Shown here: positions 3,001 through 58,967 of the stretch, piece by piece
How the letters are laid out: each line of letters starts with the position of its first letter
Numbering within the stretch: the stretch's first letter is position 1
Origin: Squalus acanthias
Lineage: Eukaryota
Length of the DNA stretch: 64,000 bases
Assembly (NCBI GenBank): GCA_030390025.1
Contig: JASTWF010000033.1
Location: 1,056,001 to 1,120,000, forward strand
Direction of reading: 5' to 3'
Notes under the pieces: model-generated
Database searches by the model: none
What the model was told of the DNA's origin: nothing
What the model saw: the letters and a program-made list of their open reading frames with translations, nothing else
Program-made: the position numbers and the translations under genes

Positions 3001-6000
3001 TGAGAAAGTGAGTCTGAGAGAGACTGTGTGTGAGAGTGAGTCTGAGAGAGACAGTGTGTGAGAGATTGAGGCTGAGAGAGACGGTGTTTTTGAGAGTGAA
3101 TCAGAGAGTGACAGAGAGAGTGAGTTGTGAGAGACAGTGTGTGAGAGAGTGAGTCTGAGAGAGATGGTGTGTGAGAGAGTGAGTCTGAGAGAGAAAGTGA
3201 GCGAGAGAGTGAGTCTGAGAGAGACAGTTTTTGAGACAGTGAGTCTGAGAGAGACAGTGTGTGAGAGAGTGAGTCTGAGAGTGTGTGAGAGAGTGAGTTT
3301 TAGAGAGACGGTGTGTGAGAGAGCGAGTCTGAGAGAGACAGTGTATGAGAGAGTGAGTCTGAGAGAGATGGTGTGTGAGAGAGTGAGTCTGAGAGAGTGT
3401 GTGAGACAGTGAGTTTGAGAGAGATCGTGTCTGAGAGAGTGAGTCTCAGAGAGACAGTGTGTGAGAGAGTGAGTCTGCGAGAGACAGTGTGTGAGAGCGT
3501 GAGTCTGAGAGAGACAGTGAGTGAGAAAGTGAGTCTGAGAGAGACATATTGTGAGAGAGTGAGTCTGAGAACGACAGTGTGTGAGAGAGTGAGTCTGAGA
3601 GAATATGTGAGAGAGTGAGTCTGAGAGAGACAGTGCGTGAGAGTGAGTCTGAGAGAGAGACAGTGTGTGAGAGAGTGAGTCTGAGAGAGAGTGTGTGAGA
3701 GACTGAGTCTGAGAGAGACAGTGTGTGAGAGAGTGAGTCTGAGAGAGACAGTATGTGAGAAAGTGAGTCTGCGAGAGACAGTGTGTGAGAGAGTGAGTCT
3801 GAGAGAGACAGTGTGTGAGAGAGTGAGTCTGAGAGAGACAGTGTGTGAGAGAGTGAGTCTGAGAGTGTGTGAGAGAGTGAGTTTTAGAGAGATGGTGTGT
3901 GAGAGAGCGAGTCTGAGAGAGACAGTGTATGAGAGAGTGAGTCTGAGAGAGATGGTGTGTGAGAGAGTGAGTCTGAGAGAGTGTGTGAGACAGTGAGTTT
4001 GAGAGAGACCGTGTCTGAGAGAGTGAGTCTGAGAGAGACAGTGTGTGAGAGAGTGAGTCTGCGAGAGACAGTTTGTGAGAGCGTGAGTCTGAGAGAGACA
4101 GTGAGTGAGAAAGTGAGTCTGAGAGAGACATATTGTGAGAGAGTGACTCTGAGAACGACAGTGTGTGAGAGAATGAGCCTGAGAGAATATGTGAGAGAGT
4201 GAGTCTGAGAGAGAGACAGTGTGTGAGAGAGTGAGTCTGAGAGAGACAGCGTGTGAGAGAGTGAGTCTGCGAGAGACAGTGTGTGAGAGCGTGAGTCTGA
4301 GACTGACGTTGTGTGAGAGAGAGAGAGAGTGAGAGAGACAGTGTGTGAGAGACTGAGTCTGAGAGAGACAGTGTGTGAGAGAGTGAGTCTGAGAGAGTGA
4401 GTGAGTGAGAGAGTGAGTCTGAGAGAGACAGTGTGTGAGAGACTGAGTCTGAGAGAGACAGTGTGTGAGAGAGTGAGTGAGTGAGAGAGTGAGTCTGAGA
4501 GAGACAGTGTGTGAGAGAGTGAGTCTGAGAGAGTGAGTGAGTGAGAGAGTGAGTCTGAGAGAGACAGTGTGTGAGAGACTGAGTCTGAGAGAGACAGTGT
4601 GTGAGAGTGTGAGTCTGAGAGAGTGAGTGAGTGAGAGAGTGAGTCTGAGAGAGACAGAGTGTGAGCGAGTGAGTCTGAGAGTGTGTGAGAGAGTGAGTTT
4701 TAGAGAGACGGTGTGTGAGAGAGCGAGTCTGAGAGAGACAGTGTATGAGAGAGTGAGTCTGAGAGAGACGGTGTGTGAGAGAGTGAGTCTGAGAGAGTGT
4801 GTGATACAGTGAGTTTGAGAGAGACAGTGTGTGAGAGAGTGAGACTGAGAGAGACAGTTTGTGAGAAAGTGAGTCTGAGAGAGACTGTGTGTGAGAGTGA
4901 GTCTGAGAGAGACAGTGTGTGAGAGATTGAGGCTGAGAGAGACGGTGTTTTTGAGAGTGAATCAGAGAGTGACAGAGAGAGTGAGTTGTGAGAGACAGTG
5001 TGTGAGAGAGTGAGTCTGAGAGAGATGGTGTGTGAGAGAGTGAGTCTGAGAGAGAAAGTGAGCGAGAGAGTGAGTCTGAGAGAGACAGTTTTTGAGACAG
5101 TGAGTCTGAGAGAGACAGTGTGTGAGAGAGTGAGTCTGAGAGTGTGTGAGAGAGTGAGTTTTAGAGAGACGGTGTGTGAGAGAGCGAGTCTGAGAGAGAC
5201 AGTGTATGAGAGAGTGAGTCTGAGAGAGATGGTGTGTGAGAGAGTGAGTCTGAGAGAGTGTGTGAGACAGTGAGTTTGAGAGAGATCGTGTGTGAGAGAG
5301 TGAGTCTCAGAGAGACAGTGTGTGAGAGAGTGAGTCTGCGAGAGACAGTGTGTGAGAGCGTGAGTCTGAGAGAGACAGTGAGTGAGAAAGTGAGTCTGAG
5401 AGAGACATATTGTGAGAGAGTGAGTCTGAGAACGACAGTGTGTGAGAGAGTGAGTCTGAGAGAATATGTGAGAGAGTGAGTCTGAGAGAGACAGTGCGTG
5501 AGAGTGAGTCTGAGAGAGAGACAGTGTGTGAGAGAGTGAGTCTGAGAGAGACAGTGTGTGAGAGACTGAGTCTGAGAGAGACAGTGTGTGAGAGAGTGAG
5601 TCTGAGAGAGACAGTATGTGAGAAAGTGAGTCTGCGAGAGACAGTGTGTGAGAGAGTGAGTCTGAGAGAGACAGTGTGTGAGAGAGTGAGTCTGAGAGAG
5701 ACAGTGTGTGAGAGAGTGAGTCTGAGAGTGTGTGAGAGAGTGAGTTTTAGAGAGATGGTGTGTGAGAGAGCGAGTCTGAGAGAGACAGTGTATGAGAGAG
5801 TGAGTCTGAGAGAGATGGTGTGTGAGAGAGTGAGTCTGAGAGAGTGTGTGAGACAGTGAGTTTGAGAGAGACCGTGTCTGAGAGAGTGAGTCTGAGAGAG
5901 ACAGTGTGTGAGAGAGTGAGTCTGCGAGAGACAGTTTGTGAGAGCGTGAGTCTGAGAGAGACAGTGAGTGAGAAAGTGAGTCTGAGAGAGACATATTGTG

Positions 6001-8122
6001 AGAGAGTGACTCTGAGAACGACAGTGTGTGAGAGAATGAGCCTGAGAGAATATGTGAGAGAGTGAGTCTGAGAGAGAGACAGTGTGTGAGGAGGTGAGTC
6101 TGAGAGAGACAGTGTGTGAGAGAGTGAGTCTGAGAGAGACAGTGTGTGAGAGCGTGAGTCAGAGAGTGTGTGAGAGAGTGAGTCTGAGAGAGAGTGTGTG
6201 TGAGACTGAGTCTGAGAGAGACAGTGTGTGAGAGAGTGAGTCTGAGAGAGTGAGTGAGTGAGAGAGTGAGTCTGAGAGAGACAGTGTGTGAGAGAGTGAG
6301 TCTGAGAGAGGACAGTGTGTGAGAGGAGTGAGACAGAGAGAGACAGTGTGTGAGCGAGTGAGTCTGAGAGTGTGTGAGAGAGTGAGTTTTAGAGAGACGG
6401 TGTGTGAGAGAGTGAGTCTGAGAGAGACAGTGTATGAGAGAGTGAGTCTGAGAGACGGTGTGTGAGAGAGTGGTCTGTGATTGACCGTTGTGTAAAATCT
6501 GAAGAGAGACAGTGTGTGAGAAGTGAGTCTGAGAGAGACATGTGTGAAAAGAGAGTGAGTCTGAGAGAGGCAGTGTTTGAGAGACTGAGTCTGAGAGAGA
6601 CAGTGTGTGAGAGAGTGAGTCTGAGAGAGTGAGTGAGTGAGAGAGTGAGTCTGAGAGAGACAGTGTGTGAGAGAGTGAGTCTGAGAGAGATGGTGTGTGA
6701 GAGAGTGAGTCTGAGAGAGACAGTGTGTGAGAGAGTGAGTCTGAGAGAGACAGTGTGTGAGAGAGTGAGTCTTAGAGAGACAGTGTGTGAGAGAGTGAGT
6801 CTGAGAGAGACAGTGTGTGAGAGAGTGAGTCTGAGAGAGACAGTGTGTGAGAGAGTGAGTCTGAGAGAGACAGTGTGTGAGAGAGTGAGTCTGAGAGAGA
6901 CAGTGTGTGAGAGAGTGAGTCTGAGAGAGACAGTGTGTGAGAGAGTAGTCTGAGAGAGACAGTGTGTGAGAGAGTGAGTCTGAGAGAGACAGTGTGTGAG
7001 AGAGTGAGTCTGAGAGAGACAGTGTGTGAGAGAGTGAGTCTGAGAGACAGTGTGTGAGAGAGTGAGTCTGAGAGAGACAGTGGGTGAGAGAGTGAGTCTG
7101 AGAGAGACAGTGTGTGAGAGAGTAAGTCTGAGAGAGACAGTGTGTGAGAGAGTGAGTCTGAGAGAGACAGTGTGTGAGAGAGTGAGTCAGAGAGTGTGTG
7201 AGAGAGTGAGTCTGAGAGAGAGAGAGATTGTGAGAATGAGTCTGAGAGAGAAAGTGTGTGAGAGAGTGAGTCTGAGAGAGTGAGTGAGTGAGAGAGTGAG
7301 TCTGAGAGAGACAGTGTGTGAGAGAGTGAGTCTGAGAGAGTGAGTGAGTGAGAGAGTGAGTCTGAGAGAGACAGTGTGTGAGCGAGTGAGTCTGAAGAGT
7401 GTGTGAGAGAGTGAGTTTTAGAGAGACGGTGTGTGAGAGAGTGAGTCTGAGAGAGACAGTGTGTGAGAGAGTGAGTCTGAGAGAGACGGTGTGTGAGAGA
7501 GTGAGTCTGAGAGAGTGTGCGAGACAGTGAGTTTGAGAGAGACAGTGTGTGAGAGAGTGAGTCTGAGAGAGATAGTGTGTGAGAGACACATTCTGAGAGA
7601 GACAGTGTGTGAGAGAGAGAGACTGAGAGAGACAGTGTGTGAGAGAGTGAGTCTGAGAGAGACAGTGTGTGAGAGAGTGAGTCTGAGAGAGAGAGTGTGT
7701 GAGAGAGTGAGTCTGAGAGAGACAGTGTGTGAGAGAGTGAGTCTGAGAGAGACAGTGTGTGAGAGAGTGAGTCTGAGAGAGTGTGTGAGACAGTGAGTCT
7801 GAGAGAGAGAGTGAGTGAGAGAGTGATTCTGAGAGAGACAGTGTGTGAGAGAGTGAGTCTGAGAGTGTGTGAGAGAGTGAGTTTGAGAGAGTCAGTGTGT
7901 GAGAGATTGAGTCTGAGAGAGATGGTGTGTGAGAGAGTGAGTCTGAGAGATACAGTTAGTGAGAGAGTGAGTCTGAGAGAGACAGTGTGTGAAAGAGTGA
8001 GTCTGAGAGAGACAGTGTGTGAGAGAGTGAGTCTGAGAGATGGTGTGAGAGAGTTAGTCTGAGAGAGACAGTGTGTAAGAGAGTGAGTCTGAGAGACAGT
8101 GTTTGAGAGAGTGAGTCTGAGA

Positions 8123-8242
8123 GGGGGAGGGGGAGAGGGGGGGAGGGGGGCTGAGGGGTGGAGGGGGGCAGAGGGTGGGGGAGGGTGGGAGGGGGGTGGA
8201 GGGGGGGAATGGGTGGAGGCGGGGGGAGGGGGGGAGTGGGGG
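8123..8242 (+). repeat. G-rich island 1 in the satellite (G-quadruplex-forming potential)
   Basis: Many G4-G7 runs; near-identical to 10488-10609. Confidence 0.85.
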
Positions 8243-10487
8243 AGTTTCAGAGAGACACTGTGTTTGAGAGAGTGTGTGAGAGAGAGAGTGAGAGATAAAG
8301 TGAGCGTGTTAGAGAGAGCGTGAGAGAGAGTGTGAGAGAGAGTGTGAGAGAGAGACAGTGAGAGAGACAGTGAGTCTGAGAGAGTGAGTGAGTCAGAGAG
8401 AGTGTCTGTGAGAGAGTGAGTCTGAGAGAGACTGTGTGTGAGTGAGTCTGAGAGAGAGAGTGTGTGAGAGACACATTCTGAAAGAGACCGTGTTTGTGAG
8501 AGTGATTCTGAGAGAGACAGTGTGTGAGAGAGTGAATCTGAGAGAGACGGTGTTTATGAGATTGAGTCAGAGAGTGTCAGAGAGAGTGAGTTGTGAGAGA
8601 CAGTGTGTGAGAAAGTGAGTCTGAGATAGATGGTGTGTGAGAGAGTGAGTCTGAGATAGACAGTGAGTGAGAGAGTGAGTCTGAGAGAGACAGTGTGTGA
8701 GAGAGTGAGTCTGAGAGAGACAGTGTGTGAGAGAGTGAGTCTGAGAGAGACAGTGTGTGAGAGAGTGAGTCTGAGATTGACGGTTTGTGAGAGAGAGAGT
8801 CTGAGAGAGACAGTGGGTGAGAGAGTGAGTCTGAGAGAGACAGTGGGTGAGAGAGTGAGTCTGAGAGAGACAGTGTGTGAGAGAGTAAGTCTGAGAGAGA
8901 CAGTGTGTGAGAGAGTGAGTCTGAGAGAGACAGTGTGTGAGAGAGAGAGTGAGAGAGTATGTGAGAGAGTGAGTCTGAGAGAGAGAGTGATTCTGAAAAT
9001 GAGCCTGAGAGAGAAAGTGTGTGAGAGAGTGAGTCTGAGAGAGATGGTGCGTGAGAGAGTGAGTCTGAGAGAGACAGTGTGTGAGAGAGTGAGTCGGAGA
9101 GAGACAGTGTGTGAGAGAGTGAGTCTGAGAGTGTGTGAGAGGGTGAGTCTTAGAGAGACAGTGTGTGAGAGAGTGAGTCTGAGATTGACGTGTGAGAGAT
9201 GGAGATTCTGAAAGAGACAGTGTGTGAGAGAGTGAGTCTGAGAGAGACAGTGTGTGAGAGAGTGAGTCTGAGAGAGACAGTGGGTGAGAGAGTGAGTCTG
9301 AGAGAGACAGTGTGTGAGAGAGTAAGTCTGAGAGAGACAGTATGTGAGAGACTGACTCTGAGAGAGACAGTGTGTGAGAGAGTGGGTCAGAGATTGTGTG
9401 AGGGAGTGAGTCTGAGAGAGAGAGTGATTGTGTGAATGAGTCTGAGAGAGACAGTGGGTGAGAGAGTGAGTCTGAGAGAGACAGTGTGTGAGAGAGTAAG
9501 GCTGAGAGAGACAGTGTGTGAGAGAGTGTGTCTGAGAGAGACAGTGTGTGAGAGAGCGAGTCAGAGAGTGTGTGAGAGAGTGAGTCTGAGAGAGAGAGTG
9601 ATTGTGAGAATGAGTCTGAGAGACAAAGTGTGTGAGAGTGTGAGTCTGAGAGTGAGAGAGTGAGAGAGTGAGTCTGAGAGAGACAGTTTGTGAGAGAGTG
9701 AGTCTGAGAGAGTGAGTGAGTGAGAGAGTGAGTCTGAGAGAGACAGTGTGTGAGCGAGTGAGTCTGAGAGTGTGTGAGAGAGTGAGTTTTAGAGGGACGG
9801 TGTGTGAGAGAGTGAGTCTGAGAGAGAGTGTGTGAGAGAGTGAGTCTGAGAGAGACGGTGTGTGAGAGACTGAGTCTGAGAGAGTGTGCGAGACAGTGAG
9901 TTTGAGAGAGACAGTTTGTGAGAGAGTGAGTCTGAGAGAGATAAGGTGTGAGAGACACATTCTGAGAGAGACAGGGTGTGAGAGAGAGAGACTGAGAGAG
10001 ACAGTGTGTGAGAGAGTGAGTCTGAGAGACAGTGTGTGAGAGAGTGAGTCTGCGAGAGACAGTGTGTGAGAGAGTAAGTCTGAGAGAGACAGTGTGTGAG
10101 AGAGTGAGTCTGAGAGAGACAGTGTGTGAGAGAGTGAGTCTGAGAGAGTGTGTGAGACAGTGAGTCTGAGAGAGAGAGTGAGTGAGAGAGTGAGTCTGAG
10201 AGACAGTGTGTGAGAGAGTGAGTCTGAGAGTGTGTGAGAGAGTGAGTTTGAGAGAGACAGTGTGTGAGAGAGTGAGTCTGAGAGAGATGGTGTGTGAGAG
10301 AGTGAGTCTGAGAGAGACAGTGAGTGAGAGAGTGAGTCTGACAAAGACAGTGTGTGAGAGAGTGAGTCTGAGAGAGACAGTGTGTGAGAGAGTGAGTCTG
10401 AGAGAGTGTGTGGGAGAGTTAGTCTGAGAGAGACAGTGTGTGAGAGAGTGAGTCTGAGAGACAGTGTTTGAGAGAGTGAATCTGAGA

Positions 10488-10609
10488 GGGGGAGGGGGAG
10501 AGGGGGGGAGGGGGGCTGAGGGGTGGAGGGGGGCAGAGGGTGGGGGAGGGTGGGAGGGGGGTGGAGGGGGGGAAATGGGTGGAGGCGGGGGGAGGGGGGG
10601 AGGGGGGGG
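10488..10609 (+). repeat. G-rich island 2
   Basis: Near-identical copy of 8123-8242 with the same flanks. Confidence 0.85.
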
Positions 10610-11747
10610 AGTCTCAGAGAGACACTGTGTTTGAGAGAGTGTGTGAGAGAGAGAGTGAGAGATAAAGTGAGAGTGTTAGAGAGAGCGTGAGAGAGAGTGT
10701 GAGAGAGAGTGTGAGAGAGAGAGAGTGAGAGAGACAGTGAGTCTGAGAGAGTGAGTGAGTCAGAGAGAGTGTCTGTGAGAGAGTGAGTCTGAGAGAGACT
10801 GTGTGTGAGAGTGAGTCCGAGAGAGAGAGTGTGTCAGAGAGAGAGTCTGAGAGAGACAGTGTATGAGAGAGTGAGTCTGAGAGAGACAGTGTGGGAGAGA
10901 GTGAATCTGAGAGAGATAGTGTGTGAGAGACACATTCGGAAAGAGACCGTGTGTGTGAGAGTGAGTCTGAGAGAGACAGTTTGTGAGAGTGTGAATCTGA
11001 GAGAGACGGTGTTTATGAGAGTGAGTCAGAGAGTGTCAGAGAGAGTGAGTTGTGAGAGACAGTGTGTGAGAGAGTGAGTCTGAGAGACATGGTGTGTGAG
11101 AGAGTGAGTCTGAGATAGACAGTGAGTGAGAGAGTGAGTCTGAGAGAGACAGTGTGTGAGAGAGTGACTCTGAGAGAGACAGTGTGTGAGAGAGTGAGTC
11201 TGAGATTGACGGTGTGTGAGAGAGAGAGTCTGAGAGAGATAGTGTGTGAGAGAGTGAGTATGGGAGAGACAGTGGGTGAGAGAGTGAGTCTGAGAGAGAC
11301 AGTGTGTGAGAGAGTGAGTCACAGAGTGTGTGAGAGAGTGAGTCTGAGAGAGAGAGTGATTGTGAGAATGAGTCTGAGAGAGACAGTGTGTGAGAGAGTG
11401 AGTCAGATAGTGTGTGAGAGAGTGAGTCTGAGAGAGCGTGATTGTGAGAATGAGTCTGAGAGAGAAAGTGTGTGAAAGAGTGAGTCTGAGAGTGTGTGAG
11501 AGAGTGAGTTTGAGAGAGACAGTTTGTGTGAGAGTGAGTCTGAGAGAGATGGTGTGTGAGAGAGTGAGTCTGAGAGAGACAGTGAGTGAGAGAGTGAGTC
11601 TGAGAGAGACAGTGTGTGAGAGAGTGAGTCTGAGAGAGACAGTGTGTGAGAGAGTGAGTCTGAGAGAGTGTGTGAGAGAGTGAGTCTGAGAGAGAGAGTG
11701 TGTGAGAGAGTGAGTCTGAGAGAGACAGTGTTTGAGAGAGTGAGTCT

Positions 11748-12141
11748 GGGAGGGGGGAGGGGGAGAGGGGGGGGAGCGGGGGAGGGTGAGGGGGGGAGGG
11801 TGAGAGGGGGGGATGGGATTGGGGTGGGGTGGTGGGTGGAGTAGGGTGGAGTTGGGGAGGGGGGTGGGGTGGATGGGGCGAATGGGGGTGGCGGAGGGAG
11901 GGGGAGCGGAGGAGAGGGGTGAGGGGGAGGCGAGGGTTGGGGAGGGGGGAGGGGTGGGGGAGGGGGATACGTGGAGGGATTAGGGGGGAGCGGATGAGGG
12001 GGGAGTGGGGGAGGGGGTGGTGGGGAAGGTGTGGGGGAGGGGGTGGGGGGAAGGGGTGGAGGCGGGGGGGAGGGGGAGGGGTGAAGGGGGGAGGTGGTGG
12101 GGGGGAAGGGGTGCTGGCAGGGGGAGGGGGTGAGGGGGGGG
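11748..12141 (+). repeat. G-rich island 3 (expanded)
   Basis: About 390 bp of G runs with flanking satellite variants like those of islands 1 and 2. Confidence 0.85.
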
Positions 12142-12924
12142 AGTCTCAGAGAGCCACTATTTGTGAGAGAGAGTCTGAGAGAGAGAGTGTATGAGAGAGT
12201 GAGTCTGAGAGAGACGGTGTATGAGAGAGTGAGTCTGAGAGAGACGGTGTGTGTGAGAGTGAGTCAATGAGTGTCAGAGAGAGTGAGTTTAAGAGAGACA
12301 GTGTGTGAGAGAGTGAGTCTGAGAGACATGGTGTGTGAGAGAGTGAGTCTGAGAGAGACAGTGAGTGAGAGAGTGAGTCGGAGAGAGACAGTGTGTGAGA
12401 GAGTGAGTCTGAGAGTGTGTGAGAGGGTGAGTCTGAGAGAGACAGTGTGCGAGAGAGTGAGTCTGAGATTGACGTTGTGTGAGAGAGAGAGAGTCTGGGA
12501 GAGACAGTGTGTGAGAGAGTGAGTCTGAGAGAGACAGTGTGTGAGAGACTGAGTCTGAGAGAGACAGTGTGTGAGAGTTTGAGTCTGAGAGAATAAGTGA
12601 GTGAGAGAGTGAGTCTGAGAGAGACAGTGTGCGAGCGAGTGAGTCTGAGAGTGTGTAAGAGAGTGAGTTTGAGAGAGACAGTGTGTGAGAGAGTGAGACC
12701 GAGAGAGATGGTGTGTGAGAGAGTGAGTCTGAGAGAGACAGCGACTGAGAGAGTGAGTCTGAGAGAGACAGTGTGTGAGAGAGTGCTTCTGAGAGAGACA
12801 GTGTGAGAGAGAGTTAGTCTGAGAGAGATGGTGTGTGAGAGAGTGAGTCTGAGAGAGACGGTGTGTGAGAGACTGAGTCTGAGAGAGACAGTGTGTGAGA
12901 GAGTGAGTCTGAGAGAGTGTGTGA

Positions 12925-36355: not shown

Positions 36356-36409
36356 GCCATGCGAGTTCAATCGGCAGCAGGTTCGTGGGTTCGGACCCCA
36401 AGTTTGGCG
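36356..36409 (+). pseudogene. tRNA-Lys pseudogene lacking the anticodon arm
   Basis: 54 nt versus 73; same flanks as the 50174 and 56991 copies. Confidence 0.75.
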
Positions 36410-36954
36410 AAGGTTATTGTTAAACTTTTTGTTTGTTGCTTTCACGGCAAATCATCATGAATTCACCGGTAATTTTCTTTGGCACAATGAAAGAAATGCT
36501 AACTGAGGGAGAGTCGATACTTCAATCATTTTAATTGTGCTTTGCACGTTAACTGTTACCCAGATCTCCTTTTACACACGGTACTTTAGGAGTCTGGTTT
36601 AAAGTGTTCATTGCTGATGACACCAGGAATCTGGAGCAATATTTGTCAAATTGAACAGCACCGGTTATTTCCACCGTGCTCAGAAAATAGAATCAGCAGT
36701 GAACATGAAATCCCATTGTGCTGACATTCAGATTAAACGCAGACAGCTTTGAAATAAGGTGAAATAATTTTACACTGAAAAGATTTGTAAGTAAGTATTT
36801 GGGCCTTTAAAAAAGTTTGTAGCATCTGATTCCTGTTCATGTCACTTCTTCCTCTGTTGAATAAGAAAGGAGGGGTTTGACGTTGACCAGACTGCACTGC
36901 GCCTGATATTTATGAGCTCATCCTTTATATTGAGCGTTTTCTCGCCCTTTGGTC

Positions 36955-37046
36955 GGTGTCATCTTTAGCTCAGCGGTTACCTCGCAGCACCAACTTAATT
37001 CTAATTTCGACCCCTGTCTCATCGCGGGCGCTGCCTCGCGTGTTTT
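36955..37046 (+). ncRNA. Vault RNA-like gene, degenerate copy
   Basis: CTTTAGCTCAGCGGTTACCTCG ... TTCGA[insert]CGCGGGCGCTGCCT ... T7; B box interrupted. Confidence 0.75.
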
Positions 37047-37170
37047 TTTGTCATTTTCAATCCCCTTATTTTACAATGAAACAAATTGTAGCCGTGATTT
37101 TAATTTAGCAGTGTGAGATTTTTCGAGGACACCTTTAACTGATTCAATAACCTATTCTTATCAGTAAGTG

Positions 37171-37199
37171 TGACCCGTGTTCGATTCCCGGTTAGGGAA
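37171..37199 (+). pseudogene. tRNA-Glu 3' fragment
   Basis: GACCCGTGTTCGATTCCCGGTTAGGGAA versus consensus GGCCCGGGTTCGATTCCCGGTCAGGGAA. Confidence 0.7.
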
Positions 37200-37559
37200 G
37201 TAACTTTGACATCACCGTTTTTAATTAATTAAATCGAATAAATAACATGCAACTAATGTGAAAAAGTTAAGAAATGTTTCAATCACCATTAATTAACTGA
37301 TAACCTTCTTTTGCAGAATGATAAATAATATAATAAGGTGACTGAGGGACAGTCGAAACTTCAGTCATTTATTTTGCTCTTTGCATGTGCTGAACTGTTA
37401 ACCCATATCTCATTTTACACATTGTAATTTAGGAGAATGGATTAAAATGTTCATTGCTTGTAAGAGCAGGGATCTGGGACAACTTTTGTTAAATTTAAAA
37501 GGACCGGCTATTTCACAGAACAAAAATGCTCTGACATAATGTTTTCAGACCACACACTG

Positions 37560-38530
37560 ACCGATCTTTCTTAGGCCCAAAGTGGATGATCTGACACTTG
37601 CCCACGTTGAACTCCATTAATCACAGTTCCGGGGAGATGTAATAGAACTGTTCAAAATTATGGGGGAAACTGTTTCCACTGGCAAGAGGGTCAGTAGGGC
37701 TGTGGGGGAAGAGCAGCGGAGTGGGACTAATTGGATAGCTCTTTCAAAGATGCTGCATCAATTGTTCATTTTAATCTGTGATTGATAGATTTTTTTTAAC
37801 CACAGGTATTAAGGAATAATTCAAGTCTGTGAGACATTTTATAATTGTTTCAATCATCATTAATCAACCAACAACATTGCGTTGCACACTGCAGGAATTG
37901 TTAACAAGTTTACTGGGTGACAGACAAACTGCAATAACTTATTATAGAATCGCAGAATCATACAGCACAGAAGGAGGCCATTGCGCCAATAGTGCCTGTG
38001 CCGGCTCTTTGAAAGAGAGATCCAATTATTTCCACTCCACAGCTCTTTTCTCGAAGCCCAGCAAGTGTTTCTTTTTCAACTTATTTCCCTTTTGAAAGTT
38101 AATATTGAATCTGCTTTCACCACCATGTCAGGCAGAATATATATGTACATCAATATTATCCAAGTCCCATTTCACACAGTGATTTCCCTGCTCTGCATGT
38201 CATGAAATGTTATCCCTTCTCATTTTACAAACTCTATTTTAGGAGTTTGTTTAAAAATGTTCGGTGCTTGTGACATCCACCATTGTTAGAATTAAAAAGA
38301 TTGTAGGTCCTTTCCTTGGAAATCGCTGCCCCAAAGTACTGTTGATGCTCATTCGTTGAGTATATTCCATGCTGAGATCAATGATTTTTCGACTGTAGTG
38401 GAATCAAGGGATATGGGGATAGGCAGGAAAGTGGAGTTCAGGCCCAAGATCAGCCATAACCTGATTGAATGGCGGAGCAGGCTCGGGGGGCCATAAGGCC
38501 GACTCCTGCTTCTAATTCTTTCGTTCATAT
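37560..38530. mobile_element. Mosaic of short CR1 fragments and tails in both orientations (paralog at about 51390-52340)
   Basis: Tail and 3' UTR motifs at about 37945-38135 (-) and 38355-38530 (+). Confidence 0.7.
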
Positions 38531-38770
38531 GTCCTTTCACAGCAGAGCAAACTCGCCCCTGGACATGCATGAGGAGCAAGTTCCAACAAAATGTTTCCGT
38601 GAACGTGATAGCTCCTACACTGCAGAACCGTCTCCACTTTCAGTACCAGGTCAGATGGAAATGTTCAGCGAGCAGGTGAACCGCTGAATCCCACTTTTCA
38701 GGGATGTCCCAAAGCGCTTCACAGTGGCGTGAAAAGAAATCAGTTGCACTTAGTAATTAAATATAGGGAA

Positions 38771-38855
38771 TTTCAGAAGGATGATTCGAACCCACAGCCT
38801 ATCAAATGAAACTGCGACGTGAACGCAGCGCCTTCGACCACTCGGCCATCCTGAC
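38771..38855 (-). pseudogene. tRNA-Leu(CAG)-derived pseudogene (anticodon now CAC)
   Basis: Reverse complement GTCAGGATGGCCGAGTGGTCGAAGGCGCTGCGTTCACGTCGCAG...GTGGGTTCGAATC. Confidence 0.85.
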
Positions 38856-39495
38856 AGCTCCCAAACTACATTGCAAGTTATCACTTCCACATTTAGAAAG
38901 TTTCAGTCCGGATGCTTGTTCGATGCTACTCGAAGGCTCAGTGACCGGGATATCATCTCCCCCGGGGTGTTTCTGAGCCTGTGCTCGGTGTATGGGGAGG
39001 TTTGGCCCGGGTCAGTGGTATCTCGCAGCCCAGGATGGACAATAACCCTCTGAGCTCTGGAGCTGGGGAAGAGCGAGTAATTAACGGGTTTGTTTCCGCG
39101 TCTGAAATGCGGCTTAGATCTGATGATATTAACCGAGGCCGGGGCTGCGAGATGTTGCATTTTGTTTAGGTTTAATCAGAGGAATATCCGCAGTCAGGAG
39201 CTGAAAAGGACTAAGAGCTGAAAAAACACAAGAACATTGATAAGAAATGTAAGCAATTGTGATAAACTCGAAAAGTTTTTTCTGGTAGTTTAGTGTTTTA
39301 ATTGTTTTAATTCATTAACCGATAGAGTTGTTTTTCCAGAATGAAAGAGATGCTCACACTGAGGGAGAGTCGAAACTTCAATAACTTAAATTTAATAATT
39401 TGCGAAACTTTATTCATTGATGAAGTTTTATCACCGATCTGATTTTACACACTGTGTATTAATTTATTTCACAGAAATAATACTCTCGAACATAA

Positions 39496-44970: not shown

Positions 44971-45190
44971 ATGATTTGGAGATGCCGGTGTTGGACTGGG
45001 GTGGACAAATGTGAGAAGTCGCACAACACCAGGTTATAGTCCAACAGCTTTATTTGAAATCACAAGCTTTCGGAGCGCTGCTCCTTCGTCAGGTGAAGAA
45101 GGTCACCTGACGAAGGAGCAGCGCTCCGAAAGCTTGTGATTTCAAATAAAGCTGTTGGACTATAACCTGGTGTTGTGCGACTTCTCACAT
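44971..45190. mobile_element. Palindromic non-autonomous Penelope element with perfect 88-bp arms and a 13-bp TSD
   Basis: Arms 45009-45096 and 45103-45190, 6-nt loop; TSD TCTATTAATAAAG at 44958-44970 and 45190-45202. Confidence 0.92.
45103..45139 (+). ncRNA. Minimal hammerhead ribozyme motif (mirror copy on the minus strand at 45060-45096)
   Basis: TCAC-CTGACGA-A-GGAGC[AGC]GCTCC-GAAA-GC-TT-GTGA; helix III region is the palindrome AAGCTT. Confidence 0.75.
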
Positions 45191-46314: not shown

Positions 46315-46386
46315 GACCTCGTGTCGCTACGATAGCACGTCTGACTCCAGCTTAGAAAGCTGCGTGTTCAAATCACGGCGGGGTCA
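46315..46386 (+). tRNA. tRNA-Trp(CCA)-derived gene, probably a pseudogene
   Basis: 72-nt match with several substitutions including D-loop GG; TATA-like CATATATAC about 30 nt upstream. Confidence 0.75.
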
Positions 46387-46889: not shown

Positions 46890-49800
46890 GAAACATAGAA
46901 ACATAGAAAATAGGTGCAGGAGTAGACCATTCGGTCCTTCGAGCCTGCACCACCATTCAATGCGTTCATGGCTGCACATGCTACCTCAGTACCCCATTCC
47001 TGCTTTCTCGCCATACCCCTTGATCCCCCTAGTTGTAAGTATTATATCTAACTCCCTTTTGAATATATTTCGCGAACTGGCCTCAACAACCTTCTGTGGT
47101 AGAGAATTCCACAGATTCACCACTCTCTGGGTGAAGAAGTTCCTCCTCATCTTAGTCTTAAATGGCTTCCCCTTTATCCTTAGACTGAGACCCCTGGTTT
47201 TAGTTTACCCTAACATTGGAAACATTCTGCCCGCATCTAATTTGTATAAACCAGTCAGAATTTTAAACGTCTCTATAAGATCCCCCCTCATTCTTCTGAA
47301 CTCCAGAGGATACAAGTTCAGTTGATCCAGTCTTTCTTCATATGTCAGTCTGGCCATCCCAGGAATCAATCTAGTGAACCTTCGTTGCACTCCCTCAATA
47401 GCAAGAATGTCCTTCCTCAAGTTAGGAGACCAAAACTGCACACAATACTCCAGGTGTGGCCTCACCAAGGCCCTGTACAACTGTAGCATCACCTCCCTAC
47501 TCCTGTACTCAAATCCCCTTGCTATGAAGGCCATCATGCCATCTGCTTTCTTGACTGCCTGCTGCACTTGCCTTCCCACCTTCAGTGACTGATGTACCAT
47601 GACGCCCAGGTCTCGTTGCACCTCCCCTTTCCCTAATCTGCCACCATTCAGGTAATAGTCTGCCTCCCTATTTTTACCACCAAAGTGGATAACCTCACAT
47701 TTATCCACATTGTACTTCATCTGCCATACATTTGCCCATTCACCCAACCTGTCCAAGTCACTCTGTAACCTCCTAGCATCCTCCTCATTGTTCACACTGC
47801 CTCCCAATTTAGTGTCATCCGCAAATTTGGAGATATTACAATTAATCCCTTCGTCCAAATCATTAATATATAATGTAAACAGCTGGGGCCCCAGCACCGA
47901 ACCCTGCGGTACCCCGCTGGTCACTGCCTGCCATTCTGAAAAGTACCCATTTACTCCTACTCTTTGTTTCCTGTTTGCCAACCAGTTCTCAATCCACGTC
48001 AACACATTACCCCCAATCCCATGTGCTTTAACTTTGCACACCAATCTCTTATGTGGGACCATGTCGAAGGCCTTCTGAAAGTCCAAATACACCACATCTA
48101 CTGGTTTCCCCCCCCCGCCCCCGTCCACCCTATTGGAAACATGCTCAAAAAATTCCAGAAGATTTGTCAAGCATGATTTCCCTTTCACAAATCCATGCTG
48201 ACTTGGACCTATCATGTCGCCACTTTCCAAATGGTCTGTTATGACATCTTTAATAATTGATTCCATCATTTTACCCACCACCGATGTCAGGCTGACCGGT
48301 CTATAATTCCCTGCTTTCTCCCTCCCTCCTTTTTTAAAAAGAGGGGTTACATTAGCCACCCTCCACTCCTTCGGAACTGATCCAGAGTCTAAGGAATGTT
48401 GGAAAATGATCGTCAATGCATCCACTATTTCCAAGGCCACCTCCTTAAGTACTCTGGCATGCAGACCATCAGGCCCTGGGGATTTATCAGCCTTCAGTCC
48501 CATCAATTTCCCCAACACCTTTTCCCGACTGATAAGGATTTCCCTCAGCTCCTCCCTCTTACCAGATCCTTTGCTCTCTTTTATTTCCGGAAGGTTGTTT
48601 GTGTCCTCCACAGTAAACACCGAACCAAAGTACTTGTTCAATTGATCTGCCATTTCTTTGTTCCCCATTATAACTTCCTCTGTTTCTGACTGCAGGGGAC
48701 CTACGTTTGTTTTTACTAACCTCTTTCTTTTTACATATTTATAGAAGCTTTTGCAGTCCATTTTAATGTTCTCCGCAAGCTTCCTTTCATATTTAATTTT
48801 CCCTGCCCTAATCAAACCCTTCGTCCTCCTCTGCTGAGTTTTAAAGTTCTCCCAGTCCCCGGGTTTGCTGCTACTTCTGGCCAATTTGTATGCCACTTCC
48901 TTGCTTTTAATACTATCCCTGATTTCTCTTGCTAGCCATGGTTGAGCCACCTTCCCTTTTTTATTTTTACGCCTGACAGGGATGTACAATTGCTATAGTT
49001 CATCCATGCGATCTCTAAATGTCTGCCATTCCCCTTCCACTGATAACCCCTTAAATATCGCTTGCCAATCTAACCTCGCCAATTCACACCTCATACCCTC
49101 AAAGTTGCCCTTATTTAAGTTCTGGACCATGGTCTCTGAATTAACTGTTTCCTTCTCCATCCTAATATAGAACTCCACCATACTCTGCTCACTCTTCCCC
49201 AAGGGGCCTCGCCCCACAAGATTGCTGATTAGTCCTTCCTCATTACACAACACCCAGTCCAGGATGGCCTCCCCTCTAGTTGGTTCCTCAACATATTGGT
49301 TTAGGAAACCATCCCTTAAACACTCCAGGAAATCCTCCTACACCGTATTGCTTCCAGTTTGAGTAGCCCAATCTATATGCATATTAAAGTCACCCATGAT
49401 AACTGCTGCGCCTTTTTTCCATGCACCTCTGATTTCCTGTTTCATACCCTCCTCCACCTCACTACTACTGTTTGGAGGTCTGTACACAACCCCCACTAAC
49501 GTTTTCTGCCCTTTGGTGTTCTGCAGCTCAACCCATATTGATTCCACATCCTCCAAGCTAATGTCCTTCTTAGCTATTGCATTAATCTCCTTTTTAACCA
49601 GCAATGCTACCCCACCCCCTTTTCCTTTTATTCTATCCTTCCTGAATGTTGAATACCGCTGGATATTCAGTTCCCAGCCTTGATTGTTCTGGAGCCACGT
49701 CTCTGTAATCCCAATCACATCATATCCGTTAACATCAATTTGCACAGTCAATTCATCCACCTTATTACGGATACTCCTTGCATTAAGACACAGAGCCTTT

Positions 49801-49945: not shown

Positions 49946-50173
49946 TTTCGCTACATGCCGTAGATGCCGTAGTTTTGTGTCTAAAAGCGCGTTGCGATCA
50001 GAACATTGCCGGAAGCCCTGTGGTTAATGAAAGGGCTTTTGATGCTTGATTTTCTTATGCACCTTGGAATTCAGGAGAACCTGGTTCGTGGTTTGCAGAA
50101 CAAGTTAAACCCCTGGAGCGGAGCCACCAGGCGCCTGGCTGCAACCAGCGACAAAGACGTTCAAAGTGATCAG

Positions 50174-50246
50174 ACCCGGCGAGCTCAGTCGGCAGAGTGT
50201 GAGACTCTCAATTTCAGGCTCGTTTGTTCGAGCCCCACGTTGGATG
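50174..50246 (+). pseudogene. tRNA-Lys(CTT)-derived pseudogene (anticodon reads CTC)
   Basis: 73-nt alignment to tRNA-Lys CTT with many substitutions. Confidence 0.82.
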
Positions 50247-50720
50247 ATAGCATTTTGTTAAAATTTTATGTTGCTTTCACGGGAAAGCTTCATTCATTAA
50301 CCGATAATCTTCTTTTGCACAATGAAAGAAATGCTAACTGAGGGAGAGTCGATAGTTCAATAATTTGTTTTGCACATTGCAAGTTAACTGTTGCCCATAA
50401 TCCATTTTACACACTGTACTTTAGGAGTCTGGCTTAAAATGTGCATTGCTGATGACACCAGGCATCTGGGGCAACTATTGTCAAATTTAACAGGACCGGT
50501 TATTTCTACCGTGTACAGAAAATAGAATCAGTAATGAACATAAAACCTCATTGTGCTGATTTTCAGATTCAACGCAGTCACCTTTGAAATAAAGGGGAAT
50601 TGCTTTACAGTGAAAAGATTTGGAAGTAAGTGTTACTCGTATTTGTGCCTTTAATTAAAGGTTGTGGCGTCTGACTCCCGTTCAGGTTTCTTCTTCCTCT
50701 GTTGAATAAGAAAGTGGGAA

Positions 50721-50773
50721 TGACGTTGACCAGACTGCACTCGCCCAGATGTGTGTGAGCTAAACCTTATATT
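50721..50773 (+). promoter_or_regulatory. Putative external vault RNA promoter elements: CRE-like TGACGT (-76) and TATA-like TTATATT (-30)
   Basis: Same motifs and spacing upstream of the other copy (36878-36883 and 36925-36931). Confidence 0.55.
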
Positions 50774-50796
50774 GAGCGGTTTCTCAACATTTGCTC

Positions 50797-50875
50797 GACG
50801 TAAGCTTTAGCTCAGCGGTTACTTCGTAGTACCAACTTAATTCTAAGTTCGAACGCGGGCGCTGCCTGGCGTTTT
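50797..50875 (+). ncRNA. Vault RNA-like gene (Pol III)
   Basis: GCTTTAGCTCAGCGGTTACTTCG (A box, as in human vtRNA1-1), GTTCGAA-CGCGGGCGCT (B box and 3' stem), pairing termini GACGTAAG/CTGGCGTT, TTTT terminator. Confidence 0.85.
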
Positions 50876-50992
50876 ATTGTCATTTTCAACCCCCTTTTAC
50901 ACCGAAACAAATTGTTACCGTGATTTCAATTCAGCTGTGTGAGATTTTTAGAGGGCAACTGTAAACGATTCATTGCCGATTCCTGTCAGCAT

Positions 50993-51023
50993 CGCGACCC
51001 GTGTTCGATTCCCGGTTATGGAA
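50993..51023 (+). pseudogene. tRNA-Glu 3' fragment
   Basis: CGCGACCCGTGTTCGATTCCCGGTTATGGAA; paralog of 37171. Confidence 0.7.
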
Positions 51024-52577
51024 TTAACTTTGATATCAACGTTTTTAATTAATTAATGCGAAGTAATTTTATTAAATTACTAACATGCATCTAATGTGAA
51101 AAATAAGAATTGTTTTAATGACCATTATTGAACCAATAACTTCCTTTTGCAGAATGAAATATATTATAATATGGTTACTGAGGAACAGTCAAAACTTCAC
51201 TCATTTAATTTGCTCTTTGCCTGTGCAAACTGTTAACCTATATCTCATTGTATACATTGTATTTTGGGAGAATGGTTTAAAATGTTTATTGCTTGTGAGA
51301 GCAGGGATCTGGGGCAACTTTTGTTAATTTAACAGGACCGGCTATTTCACAGAAAAAAAAATTCTCTGACATAATGTTTTCAGACCATACACTGACCGAT
51401 CTTTCTTAGGCCCAAAGTGGATGATCTGACACTTGCCCACATTGAACTCCATTAATCGGTGTTCAGGGGAGATTTAATAGAACTGTTCAAAATTATGGGG
51501 GAAACTGTTTCCACTGGCAGGAGGGTCAGCAGGGCTATGGGGGAAGAGCAGCGGAGTGGGACTAATAGGAAAGCGCTTTCAAATATGTTGCATCAATTGT
51601 TCATTTTAATCTGCGATTGATAGATTTTTGTTAACGAAAGGTATTAAAGGATAATTCAAGTCTCTGAGTCTCCTTATAATTTTTTCAATGATCAGTAATC
51701 AACACACAACATTGTGTTGCTCGCTGCAGGAATTGCTAACAAGTTTACTGAGTGACAGCCAAACTTGAATAACCTTTTATAGAATCATAGAATCATACAG
51801 CACAGAAGGAGGCCATTCGGACAATTATTACCACTCCCCAGCTCTTTTTCCAATGCCCTGCAAGTGTTTCCTTTTCAATTTCTTTCCCTTTTGAAAGTTA
51901 ATATTGAATCTGCTTTCACCACCATGTCAGGCAGAAATATATTTACATCAATGTTATCCAAGTCCCATTTCACACAGTAATTTCCCTGCTCTGCATGTCA
52001 TGAAATGTTCTCCCTTCTCATTTTACAAACTCTATTTTAGGAGATTGTTTAAAAATGTTCGATGCTTGTGACGTCAGCCATTGCTAGATTGAAAAGGATT
52101 GCAGCCCCTTTCCTTGGAAATCTCAACCCCAAAGTGCTTTTGATGCTCATTCGTTGAGTATATTCAAGGCTGAGATCGATAGATTTTTGGACTGTAGTGG
52201 AATCAAGGGATATGGGGATAGGCAGGAAAGTGGAGTTGAGGTCCAAGATCAGCCATTATCTGATTGAATGGCGGTGCAGGCTCGCGGGGCCATAAGGCCT
52301 GCTCCTGCTCCTAATTATTTCGTTCTTATGTTCTTATGTCCTTTCACAGGAGAGCAAACTCGCCCCTGGACCTGCATGAGGAGCAAGTTCCAACAAAATG
52401 TTTCCGAGAAAGTGATAACTCCTACACTGCGGAAACGTCTCCACTTTCAGTATCAGGTCTGATGGAAATGTTCAGCGAGCGGGTGAACCATTGAATCCCA
52501 CTTTTGAGGGACTTACCAAAGCGCATCACAGTGGCGTCAAAAGAAATGTGTTGGCCTTAGTAATTAAATATAAGCAA

Positions 52578-52660
52578 TGTCTGAATTGGGATCCGAACCA
52601 ACGCCTTCAGCGAAGGCTGTGACCTGAACGCAGCGCCTTAGACCGCTCGGCCAACCTGAC
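52578..52660 (-). pseudogene. tRNA-Leu(CAG) pseudogene
   Basis: 83 nt; reverse complement GTCAGGTTGGCCGAGCGGTCTAAGGCGCTGCGTTCAGGTCACAG...; B box mutated. Confidence 0.85.
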
Positions 52661-53307
52661 TGTTAAACAGTTCACTTGTAACTTGTCACTTCCGCATTTA
52701 GAAATTTTCAGTTCGGGTGCTTGTTCAATGCTGCTCGAAGGCTCAGTGACCGGGATATCATCTCCCCCGGGGTGTTTCTGAGACTGTGCTCGGTGTATGG
52801 GGAGGTTTAGCCTGGGTCCGTGTTATCTTGCAGCCCAGGGATGGACAATAACCCTCTGAGCTCTGGAGCTGAGGAAGAGCGAGTAATTAATGGGTTTGTT
52901 TCCGCGTCTGAAATGCGGCTTCGATCTGCTGGTATTAACCGAGGCCGGGGCTGCGAGAAGTTGCATTTTGTTCACGTTTAATCAGAGGAATATCCGCAGT
53001 CAGGAGCTGAAAAGGACCGAGAGCTGAAAAAACACAAGAAAAAAGATAAGAAATGGTAGCAATTGTGATAAACTGTTTAAAGTGTTTTCTGGTAGTTTCG
53101 TGTTTTAATTGTTTTAATCACCATTCATTAACCGATAGCGTTGTTTTTGCAGAATGAAGGAAATGCTCACACTGAGGGACAGTCGAAACTTCAATAACTT
53201 AACTTTACCAATGTGCGCAACTTTATTCATTGATGAAGTTTTATCCCCTATCTCAATTTACACACTGTGTATTAATTTCTTTCACAAAAAATATGCTCTC
53301 GAAAATT

Positions 53308-53911: not shown

Positions 53912-53984
53912 TGTTTCCGCCCGGCATTGAACCGTGGACTTCTTGCGTGTAAGGTAAACGTGATAACCGCTACATTACGTAAAC
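53912..53984 (-). pseudogene. tRNA-Val(TAC)-like pseudogene
   Basis: 73-nt alignment; paralog of 39496. Confidence 0.82.
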
Positions 53985-56285: not shown

Positions 56286-56464
56286 AGCAGGTGGTGAAAG
56301 CGGGCGTGAGACGGTAACTGACAGCTAAGCGCTGCTTCTGTTGCTGTCTGACACCCGGTGGTAGTGGGCGGGGATGTTAAAGCCCTTTAATTACTCCAAG
56401 TCAGGAGAAATCAAACAGTGCTTGAGGAACGTGCATATATACAAACATCGCCGCTCGCATTGTG

Positions 56465-56536
56465 GACGTCGTGGCGCAACGGTAGGGCGTCTGACGCCAG
56501 ATTTGCAGGCTGCGTGTTCAAATCACGGCGGGGTCA
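56465..56536 (+). pseudogene. tRNA-Trp(CCA) pseudogene
   Basis: 72-nt alignment; U33 to G and a broken anticodon stem; paralog of 46315. Confidence 0.82.
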
Positions 56537-56990
56537 TTGCTCTATTCGATAATCCCGGAATTAATATTTTCTTTGCTGTTTCACAATAATCAGAACCTTG
56601 CTCCAAAGACTATCTCACTGTTTCCCCATTGTTAGGGAAAGAATCGCCAGAATGCCTCATTTATTTAATGTGACAAGACACAAGCACAGGTATTCGTTCA
56701 AAATCAAACAGCAGGTGGCCACACATCGAATAAACAGTGCCAGAGAGACAGACACAATCGGGAAACACCGGGAAACAGACAAGAGATATTGACAAGGAAT
56801 AAAAGCGCTTTGCGATCAGAAAATGCCTGAATCCCTGTGGTTAATGAAACGGCTTTTGATGCTTGATTTCCTTGCACACCTTGGAATTCAGGAGAACCTG
56901 GTTCGTGGTTTGCAGAACAAGTTAAATCCCTGGGGCGGAGCCAGCAGGCGCCTGGCTGCAATCAGAGACAAGGACGCCCGAGCTTATCAG

Positions 56991-57063
56991 GCCCGGCTAG
57001 CTCAGTCGGTAGAATATGAGACTCTTAATCTCAGAGTCGTGGGTTCGAGCCCCACCTTGGGCG
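56991..57063 (+). tRNA. tRNA-Lys(CTT), best-preserved full-length tRNA in the window
   Basis: About 4 substitutions from consensus; A and B boxes and anticodon arm intact; mismatches in the D and acceptor stems. Confidence 0.8.
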
Positions 57064-57282
57064 AATGCTCTTTGTTAAACATGTATGCTGCTTCCACGGA
57101 AAAGCGTCATTAATTAACCGATAACCTTTATTTGCTCTATAAAAGAAATGCTACCTGAGGGAGGGTCGATGTACAATAATTTTATTTGTGCTTTGCATGT
57201 TACCCATATCTCATTGTGTCTAATTGAACAGGACCGGATATTTCTACCGTGCACAGAAAATAGAATCAGCAGTGAACATCCA

Positions 57283-57864: not shown

Positions 57865-58967
57865 TTGAGAGGTCGCACAACACCAGGTTATAGTCCAACA
57901 GTTTTATTTGAAATCACAAGCTTTCGGAGTTACTATTCCTTCGTCGGGTGAAGTAAAGAGATACAGAATCGCCAAAGCATATATAGATAGACAACAATGC
58001 ATGTGTACCTTACAATTGCAGACAACTAAATTAAATCATCCTGACTGTTTATCTGCCGAGGTGTGATAAAGTTAATCAGGTCAGCCAAGAAGGTAGCACA
58101 TCAAAGACATAGCAAGATACAACTGAGACAATGAGGTGGAGTCGCAGGGGGTCTAACGTGTCAAAAGCTGCCGTCTGTATGTAAAATGATAAGCTTTAAA
58201 ATTTTTACTTTTTTACTGGGAATCACATCTGTGAACAAGCCAACGACGACTCGAGTCCGGATCACGTCATGTACCGTGACATAAACCCAAGATCCCGGTT
58301 GAGACCGTCTTCATGAGTGCAGAATTTGGCTATCAGTTTCTGCTCGATGATTTTGCGTTGTCGTGTGTTCCTAAGGTCGCCTTGGAGAACGCTTTCCCGC
58401 AGATCCGAGGCTGAATGTCCTTGACTGCTGAAGTGTTCCCCGACTGGGTGGTAACAAGCCTGCCTGGCGATTGTTGCGCGGTGCTCGTTCATACGTTGTC
58501 TCAGTGTCTGCATGGTCTCGCCGATGTACCATGCTGCAGTGCATTCTTTCCTGCAACGTATGAGGTAGACAACGTTGGCCGAGTCACATGAGTATGTACC
58601 ATGTACCTGGTGGGTAGTGTCCTCACGTGTGATGGTGGTATCTGTGTTGATGATCTGGCATGTCTTGCAGAGTTTGCCGTGGCAGGGTTGTGTGGTGTCG
58701 TGGTCGAAAAATCGCATAGACCTCCGCAGAAGGCAAACACGGGACACAACCAACAGGGTACCCTACGTCGTCCAGTACTTCCCCGGAGCGGAGAAACTAC
58801 GCCATGTTCTTCGCAGACTTCAACATGTCATCGATGACGACAAACACCTCGCTAAGGCCATCCCCACGCCTCCACTACTTGCCTTCAAACAGCCGCCTAA
58901 CCTCAGAAGTACCATCGTTCGCAGCAAATTACCCAGCTTTCAGTATAACAGCGACCACGACACCACA
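57865..58967 (-). mobile_element. Penelope-like element: pLTR, 3' UTR and GIY-YIG endonuclease (58262-58704, -) with an inverted 5' segment (58705-58967, +)
   Basis: C..C..C linker, NVVYLIRC...WYIGET.QTLRQRMNEH, GLNRD; the inverted part encodes RVPYVVQYFPG...FKQPPNL; hammerhead core mutated to CCGACGA near 57945. Confidence 0.92.

Follow-up and report, generated by a model that had tools for sequence, protein, structure and literature searches.

A vault RNA gene copy in a duplicated tRNA cassette of the spiny dogfish, probably a decaying member of an amplified family

Background

In the literature cited here, the functional vtRNA-1 gene of jawed vertebrates is located upstream of the protocadherin cluster, most mammals having one copy and a few having small local clusters (PMC10491885, PMC7058938, PMC7904556). 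The Rfam vault counts given are 9 for human, 2 for chicken (PMC4378963) and 12 for the killifish Nothobranchius (PMC5584509), and human vtRNAs are given as 88-150 nt long (PMC10491885). The vault promoter is described as the combination of internal A and B boxes with CRE-like and TATA elements, the CRE-like element being reported as missing in the human vault pseudogenes (PMC7058938). Sharks are described as having expanded clustered tRNA loci, with 37 copies of tRNA-Sec in the spiny dogfish versus one in non-sharks (Squalomix preprint, 10.1101/2025.06.08.657570); the word "vault" occurs 0 times in the main text of that preprint. No report of a shark vault RNA amplification was found in literature titles and abstracts, and several vault loci of sharks may be listed already in the main vault survey, the preprint supplements or automated annotations.

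The DNA analysed here, called the window throughout, is a stretch of 64,000 nucleotides of Squalus acanthias (GCA_030390025.1, contig JASTWF010000033.1), in which a compact vault RNA gene amid tRNA genes had been predicted. We consider it probable that this copy was duplicated, together with its upstream promoter motifs, along with the tRNA genes, and that it is a likely decaying member of a cassette family which has likely been amplified to tens or hundreds of copies.

Vault RNA gene copies and their promoters

The features of the two gene copies are as follows (window positions and strand):

50798..50876, + strand: vault RNA gene, copy A (Rfam RF00006; 79 nt by Rfam model, folding test)
50808..50818, + strand: internal A box, identical in copies A and B
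50847..50855, + strand: internal B box, with G at the ninth position in place of the C of the Rfam tRNA and Vault consensus lines
50872..50875, + strand: T4 run, Pol III terminator-like
50721..50726, + strand: CRE-like hexamer TGACGT at -77, conserved in copy B
50767..50773, + strand: TATA-like element TTATATT at -31, conserved in copy B
36956..37049, + strand: vault RNA gene, copy B, with a T7 run at 37043-37049

The proposed vault identity of copy A was confirmed with the Rfam covariance models: by cmscan it matched RF00006 (Vault) over the full model (1-99) with 47.9 bits (E 1.4e-07), above the gathering cut-off of 34 bits. Copy B was matched over 36956-37045 in an E-value search, with 33.2 bits, just under the cut-off. 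In the alignment to the Rfam consensus the conserved 5' and 3' blocks surround a variable loop, and the blocks listed in the original prediction were all found (23-nt 5' block at 50804-50826, 20-nt loop at 50827-50846, 3' block from 50847). The 19-nt vault core occurred twice in the window with up to 3 mismatches, versus 0.01 expected from 100 shuffles. Judged from its sequence, copy A genuinely descends from a vault RNA gene, and its score places it in RF00006. The original prediction mentioned neither copy B nor the degenerate state of the tRNA genes nearby.

Eight of the nine B box consensus positions are present in each copy, with the last C missing in A and the first G changed in B (the consensus being that of the Rfam tRNA and Vault lines), and the Rfam alignment places a 3-nt deletion at the B box of copy A. 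Copy B is 11 nt longer than copy A after the B box. Both genes end in a Pol III terminator of four or more T (T4 at 50872 in copy A, T7 at 37043 in copy B).

The CRE-like and TATA-like elements expected upstream were present, one base away from the predicted positions of -76 and -30: with +1 at 50798 they lie at -77 and -31 in copy A, and they lie at -78 and -31 in copy B. Both copies thus carry the upstream elements as defined in PMC7058938, and the composite anatomy that had been proposed (internal A and B boxes with CRE-like and TATA-like elements) is borne out in the sequence. The joint chance of TGACGT and TTATATT falling in such slots was roughly estimated at 6e-5.

Further upstream, the stretch 50632-50709 (90-165 bp before copy A) had the top contig depth in both public DNA runs described below (15,000-55,000, summed), exceeding that of the gene. 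Within the window it is found only ahead of the two vault copies; it could serve as a distal promoter element, or it could be a spacer that is repeated more widely.

Genomic setting in a duplicated tRNA cassette

The cassette and its neighbours comprise the following features:

50146..53306, + strand: duplicated cassette, unit A (Lys-like remnant, vault, tRNA-like remnant, Val and Leu remnants, spacer modules)
36327..39493, + strand: duplicated cassette, unit B
46315..46386, + strand: degenerate tRNA-Trp, with a LINE insertion between gene and cassette
46890..49794, - strand: LINE (endonuclease and reverse transcriptase frames) inserted in the cassette
50174..50246, + strand: degenerate tRNA-Lys-like gene (Rfam 22.8 bits), about 550 bp upstream of copy A
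50291..50506, + strand: 216-bp spacer module, with 10 matches in the window, all within cassette units
50945..51023, + strand: tRNA-like remnant (T-arm and acceptor end), found by ARAGORN at threshold 70 only, about 70 bp downstream of copy A
52577..52661, - strand: degenerate tRNA-Leu(CAG) (ARAGORN; Rfam 22.4 bits)
53912..53984, - strand: degenerate tRNA-Val (Rfam 33.8 bits, five non-standard pairs)
56286..57279, + strand: third, truncated cassette copy (Trp-like, Lys, start of spacer)
1..12917, no strand assigned: 30-bp satellite array of 439 copies, bordering the region

Co-duplication of the vault RNA with tRNA genes, as originally suggested, is demonstrated within the window by a 3.2-kb duplication that carries both. 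Units A and B are colinear and 84.4% identical by blastn (390 mismatches in 3100 aligned columns), and share the order Trp-like tRNA, LINE insertion (unit A only), Lys-like tRNA, about 550 bp of spacer, vault, about 70 bp and the tRNA-like remnant, followed on the opposite strand by the Val and Leu remnants. The Lys-like gene is 84% identical to the Lys(CTT) gene called by ARAGORN at 56991, within the third cassette copy, whose homology stops about 250 bp before the vault position. Copies of the 216-bp module follow several of the cassette's Pol III genes (36456-36671, 37287-37514, 50291-50506, 51123-51348, plus six partial copies); the arrangement suggests that the cassette grew through internal duplication of gene-plus-spacer units. 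Between the two units, transversions (225) outnumber transitions (165), and CpG-to-TpG changes are no commoner than other CpG changes (31 versus 31).

Twelve tRNA matches were obtained with Rfam at E up to 5 (22.8-46.9 bits). At the Rfam cut-off, all nine matches had at least two non-standard pairs and two of the nine had no T-arm; judged by these defects, the tRNA cassette in the window is decayed. One non-standard pair in tRNA-Val may be natural. The tRNA-like remnant at 50945..51023, which may be of Glu origin, had no Rfam match at E up to 10, and it was the only ARAGORN match retained from thresholds 70-80, the others being mostly noise.

Both vault copies share their upstream promoter motifs and the 3.2 kb of colinear flanks. 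Since the upstream elements travelled along, and neither a poly-A tract nor a target-site repeat accompanies the copies, the vault gene would have entered the tRNA cassette by duplication at the DNA level and not by retroposition. A SINE head derived from a vault RNA, or a retroposed pseudogene family dispersed through RNA, is very improbable here, even with a LINE-rich region that could supply reverse transcriptase and with dispersed vault pseudogenes known in humans (PMC7058938). No A-run exceeds 3 nt, the 60-nt flanks share no word of 6 nt or more, and contigs from public runs X5 and X10 (below) bridge promoter, gene and downstream flank. The dispersed SINE head, named beforehand as one finding that would count against the prediction, was accordingly rejected: no poly-A, target-site repeat or unrelated flanks occur at either copy.

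The rest of the window is rich in repeats. Among the 22 frames of at least 150 aa, Pfam matches were to reverse transcriptase or endonuclease (8 frames) and weakly to GIY-YIG (1 frame), 13 frames being without match; none of the 22 matched cadherin or zinc-finger families, which would be expected beside a canonical vtRNA-1 locus adjoining ZMAT2 and the protocadherin cluster, the window spanning 13 kb downstream of copy A. For one LINE frame the best named relatives among the 120 listed were from Chiloscyllium (74%), Hypanus (68%) and Mobula (59%), with birds and turtles at most 53%, as fits an elasmobranch and probably a shark. The LINE frames 29549-31768 (- strand, 740 codons) and 47208-48992 (- strand, 595 codons) are stop-free and carry reverse transcriptase domains. 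The GIY-YIG match at 58265-58762 (- strand; 22.1 bits, cut-off 22.6) is perhaps the remnant of a Penelope-like element.

The 30-bp satellite is purine-rich, with a GC skew of about 0.7, and is followed by G-rich low-complexity DNA; its array possibly marks a chromosome-end or centromere-flank setting. A 78-bp tandem repeat (8.6 copies, 94% match in the core) lies at 27109-28020, and two 95%-identical copies of a 220-bp near-perfect inverted repeat, MITE-like, lie at 26202-26421 and 44971-45190. Matches to MIR396 at 45031 were rejected, being due to this inverted repeat and far under the family cut-off.

Copy number estimated from public contig depths

Contigs of four of the 20 public runs that hold part of the cassette were aligned on positions 50450-51200 (751 bases) at 80% likeness. 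Runs X1 and X5 are from the same organism in two studies and X10 is from a second organism; no RNA run was listed among the 20. X10 and X13 are guessed to be RNA runs, the X13 contigs do not cover the gene, and neither run was counted for or against expression. X1 and X5 gave 205 contigs each, mostly 80-95% alike to the window, with 149 (X1) and 128 (X5) under 95%. The fraction of cassette words present was only 0.37 in X1 and 0.32 in X5, and both may come from a close relative rather than from the same species.

Depths of single contigs were used, because summed contig depth double-counts overlapping contigs and is not a copy number. A few low-depth contigs served as the assumed single-copy level, which could be wrong by a factor of two or more: the lowest depths among the X1 contigs listed were 8.8, 10.7 and 13.9, and a low-depth contig shared by both studies had 10.7 in X1 and 13.3 in X5. 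Position 50802, in the vault 5' stem, is covered by 20 X1 contigs with a combined depth of 8873; the deepest of them must therefore reach at least 444, about 40 times the low-depth baseline; the corresponding lower bound at 50830 is 237. Single X1 contigs in the flanks reached 443 (50867-51070, 8 differences, 3 gaps), 630 and, just upstream of the CRE-like site, 3088. A 117-nt contig shared by the two studies had a depth of 189 in X1 and 154 in X5.

The second run was shallower over the gene. At 50802 the 11 X5 contigs together had a depth of 399, with a mean of 36; this is about 3 times the baseline per contig and about 30 times when summed, and over the vault body its depth was ten-fold below that of X1. 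Only about 55% of X5 was read, and contigs resembling human DNA are filtered out, which might account for the gap.

The contig tables contained four or more additional versions of the vault region, and further cassette versions were visible as joints and insertions. Contigs bridging promoter, gene and downstream flank were found in X5 (363 nt) and X10 (540 nt), so the vault-in-cassette arrangement is not an assembly accident of the window. The X10 contig, with promoter, gene and more than 300 nt downstream, is hence not a mature RNA and may be DNA; over the aligned part it has 14 more letters than the window, 1 of which is listed.

From these depths we estimate the cassette at tens to a few hundred copies. 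The expectation of a raised vtRNA copy number is supported by the contig depths of one DNA run and weakly by those of the second, as an inference from depth rather than a count. An alternative, in our judgement improbable, is that local segmental duplication produced just a few copies and that the deep contigs reflect overlapping short contigs, library bias or repeats shared with other tRNA cassettes. Such an account would fit the low vault-body depth of X5 (mean 36 per contig at 50802), the double-counting in the summed depths and the position of the deepest bins upstream (50632-50709), off the gene. The figure of at least 444 for a single X1 contig at 50802 is, however, independent of summing, the depth ratios of shared contigs are concordant across the two studies (189/10.7 and 154/13.3), and the further versions of the vault region also speak against it.

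Matches to an 18-nt vault core in metagenomes (n=6) were discarded as chance, 0/6 matching any Rfam family, and scans of metagenomes with a lineage-specific vault pattern gave 0 matches.

Terminal stem and condition of the two copies

The complementary termini that had been noted hold for 6 of 7 pairs in copy A, the exception being an A-G mismatch at 50802/50868; in copy B at most 5 of 7 pairs form. The paired termini (panhandle) of a functional vault RNA are therefore incomplete in both. For copy A the terminal pairs had an ensemble probability of at most 0.02, and the forced fold was 3.2 kcal/mol worse than the best one. With C placed at 50802 in silico, the panhandle became the best fold, with pair probabilities of 0.70-0.98. 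C stands at this position in all depth of the listed contigs of X1 (20 contigs), X5 (11) and X10 (1), 50802 being without coverage in run X13. Unconstrained folding of either copy was no better than that of shuffles (z about 0).

A working, "compact" vtRNA, as originally envisaged, is thus unsupported for copy A, whose terminal stem is broken by a base absent from all listed contigs and whose B box is without its last consensus base. Because the predicted panhandle does not form, copy A is not classed as a functional vault RNA.

The shortness of copy A is likely due to deletion, since copy B and a public contig are both 11 nt longer at the same point. The contig concerned, from X5 with a depth of 71.7, has 11 more bases than copy A after the B box, like copy B, and two other contigs (X5 depth 37.5, X1 depth 13.9) have just one extra C, which would restore the B box. 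The order of events may have been a long form, then a 10-nt deletion, then the loss of one C in the lineage of copy A.

Over the gene, copies A and B are identical at 68/79 positions; the median of equal windows of the duplication is 70/79, and 67% of such windows match or beat the vault identity. This comparison gives no sign of selection on the gene, with little power from only two copies, one dead copy being sufficient for the result.

Both vault copies are likely decaying. Some features point the other way: copy A keeps the CRE-like and TATA-like elements, the A box and the T4 run, and CpG is not depleted (observed/expected 1.0-1.2 at its locus versus 0.35 in the adjacent LINE). Since X1 and X5 may stem from a related species, bases that seem "private" to the window could reflect divergence between species.

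On these grounds copy A might be an active vault RNA gene of about 78-79 nt, strong upstream elements offsetting a weak B box; we regard this as unlikely. Besides the score above the Rfam cut-off and the retained elements and CpG content, it would accord with the deep contig family (443) about 95% like the downstream flank, and with an X1 depth of about 480-530 over 50840-50853 with no listed insertion, by which the short form may itself be amplified. It is opposed by the terminal stem that fails to form, the B box without its ninth consensus base, A/B conservation not in excess of the surroundings, the broken neighbouring tRNA genes, and a base at 50802 that is found in no listed contig.

Proposed history of the family

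In the history that we favour, a vault gene duplicated into a tRNA cassette would have multiplied with the cassette by unequal exchange, and the family would have turned over by birth and death. [quoted passage not shown] The two copies in the window, beside a satellite and among LINE insertions, would no longer have that fold, nor a complete B box.

More tentatively, sharks may possess a high-copy vault RNA family, of about a hundred or more, that is housed in tRNA arrays at a distance from the protocadherin locus and includes intact, expressed long and short forms, as a dosage amplification parallel to that of tRNA-Sec.

Tens to hundreds of copies in tRNA arrays would, if true, break the rule that vault RNA genes are few and protocadherin-linked, and would show that other Pol III genes are carried with shark tRNA arrays as these expand. 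The versions, whether intact or decayed and whether long or short, would then form a natural allelic series, showing which parts of RNA and promoter are kept by selection. If only dead copies were amplified, the matter would be a minor annotation point.

Comparison with known systems

With the vertebrate vault RNA genes (RF00006; human VTRNA1-1/1-2/1-3 and VTRNA2-1) the window copies share the 5' and 3' blocks, variable loop, A box, B box (at eight of nine positions), CRE-like and TATA-like elements and T-run. According to PMC10491885 those genes are few in number and mostly adjoin the protocadherin cluster, whereas the copies in the window lie among tRNA genes and are apparently amplified. 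At 79 nt, copy A is also shorter than the human vtRNAs (88-150 nt in PMC10491885), likely through deletion.

The human pseudogenes VTRNA2-2P and VTRNA3-1P are alike in their vault homology and likely loss of function. They are described as lacking the CRE-like element and as lying on other chromosomes (PMC7058938), whereas the window copies keep their upstream elements and were duplicated as DNA in a cassette.

The shark tRNA clusters and multicopy tRNA-Sec, as presented in the Squalomix preprint, offer the same picture of a low-copy Pol III gene multiplied amid large clustered tRNA arrays; the vault RNA differs in not being a tRNA and in bringing its own upstream promoter. A vault RNA gene has likely been drawn into the tRNA arrays of sharks, in line with what is reported for tRNA-Sec. 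The RNA family is a known one; new are its genomic setting and its likely amplification, for which shark tRNA-Sec provides a precedent.
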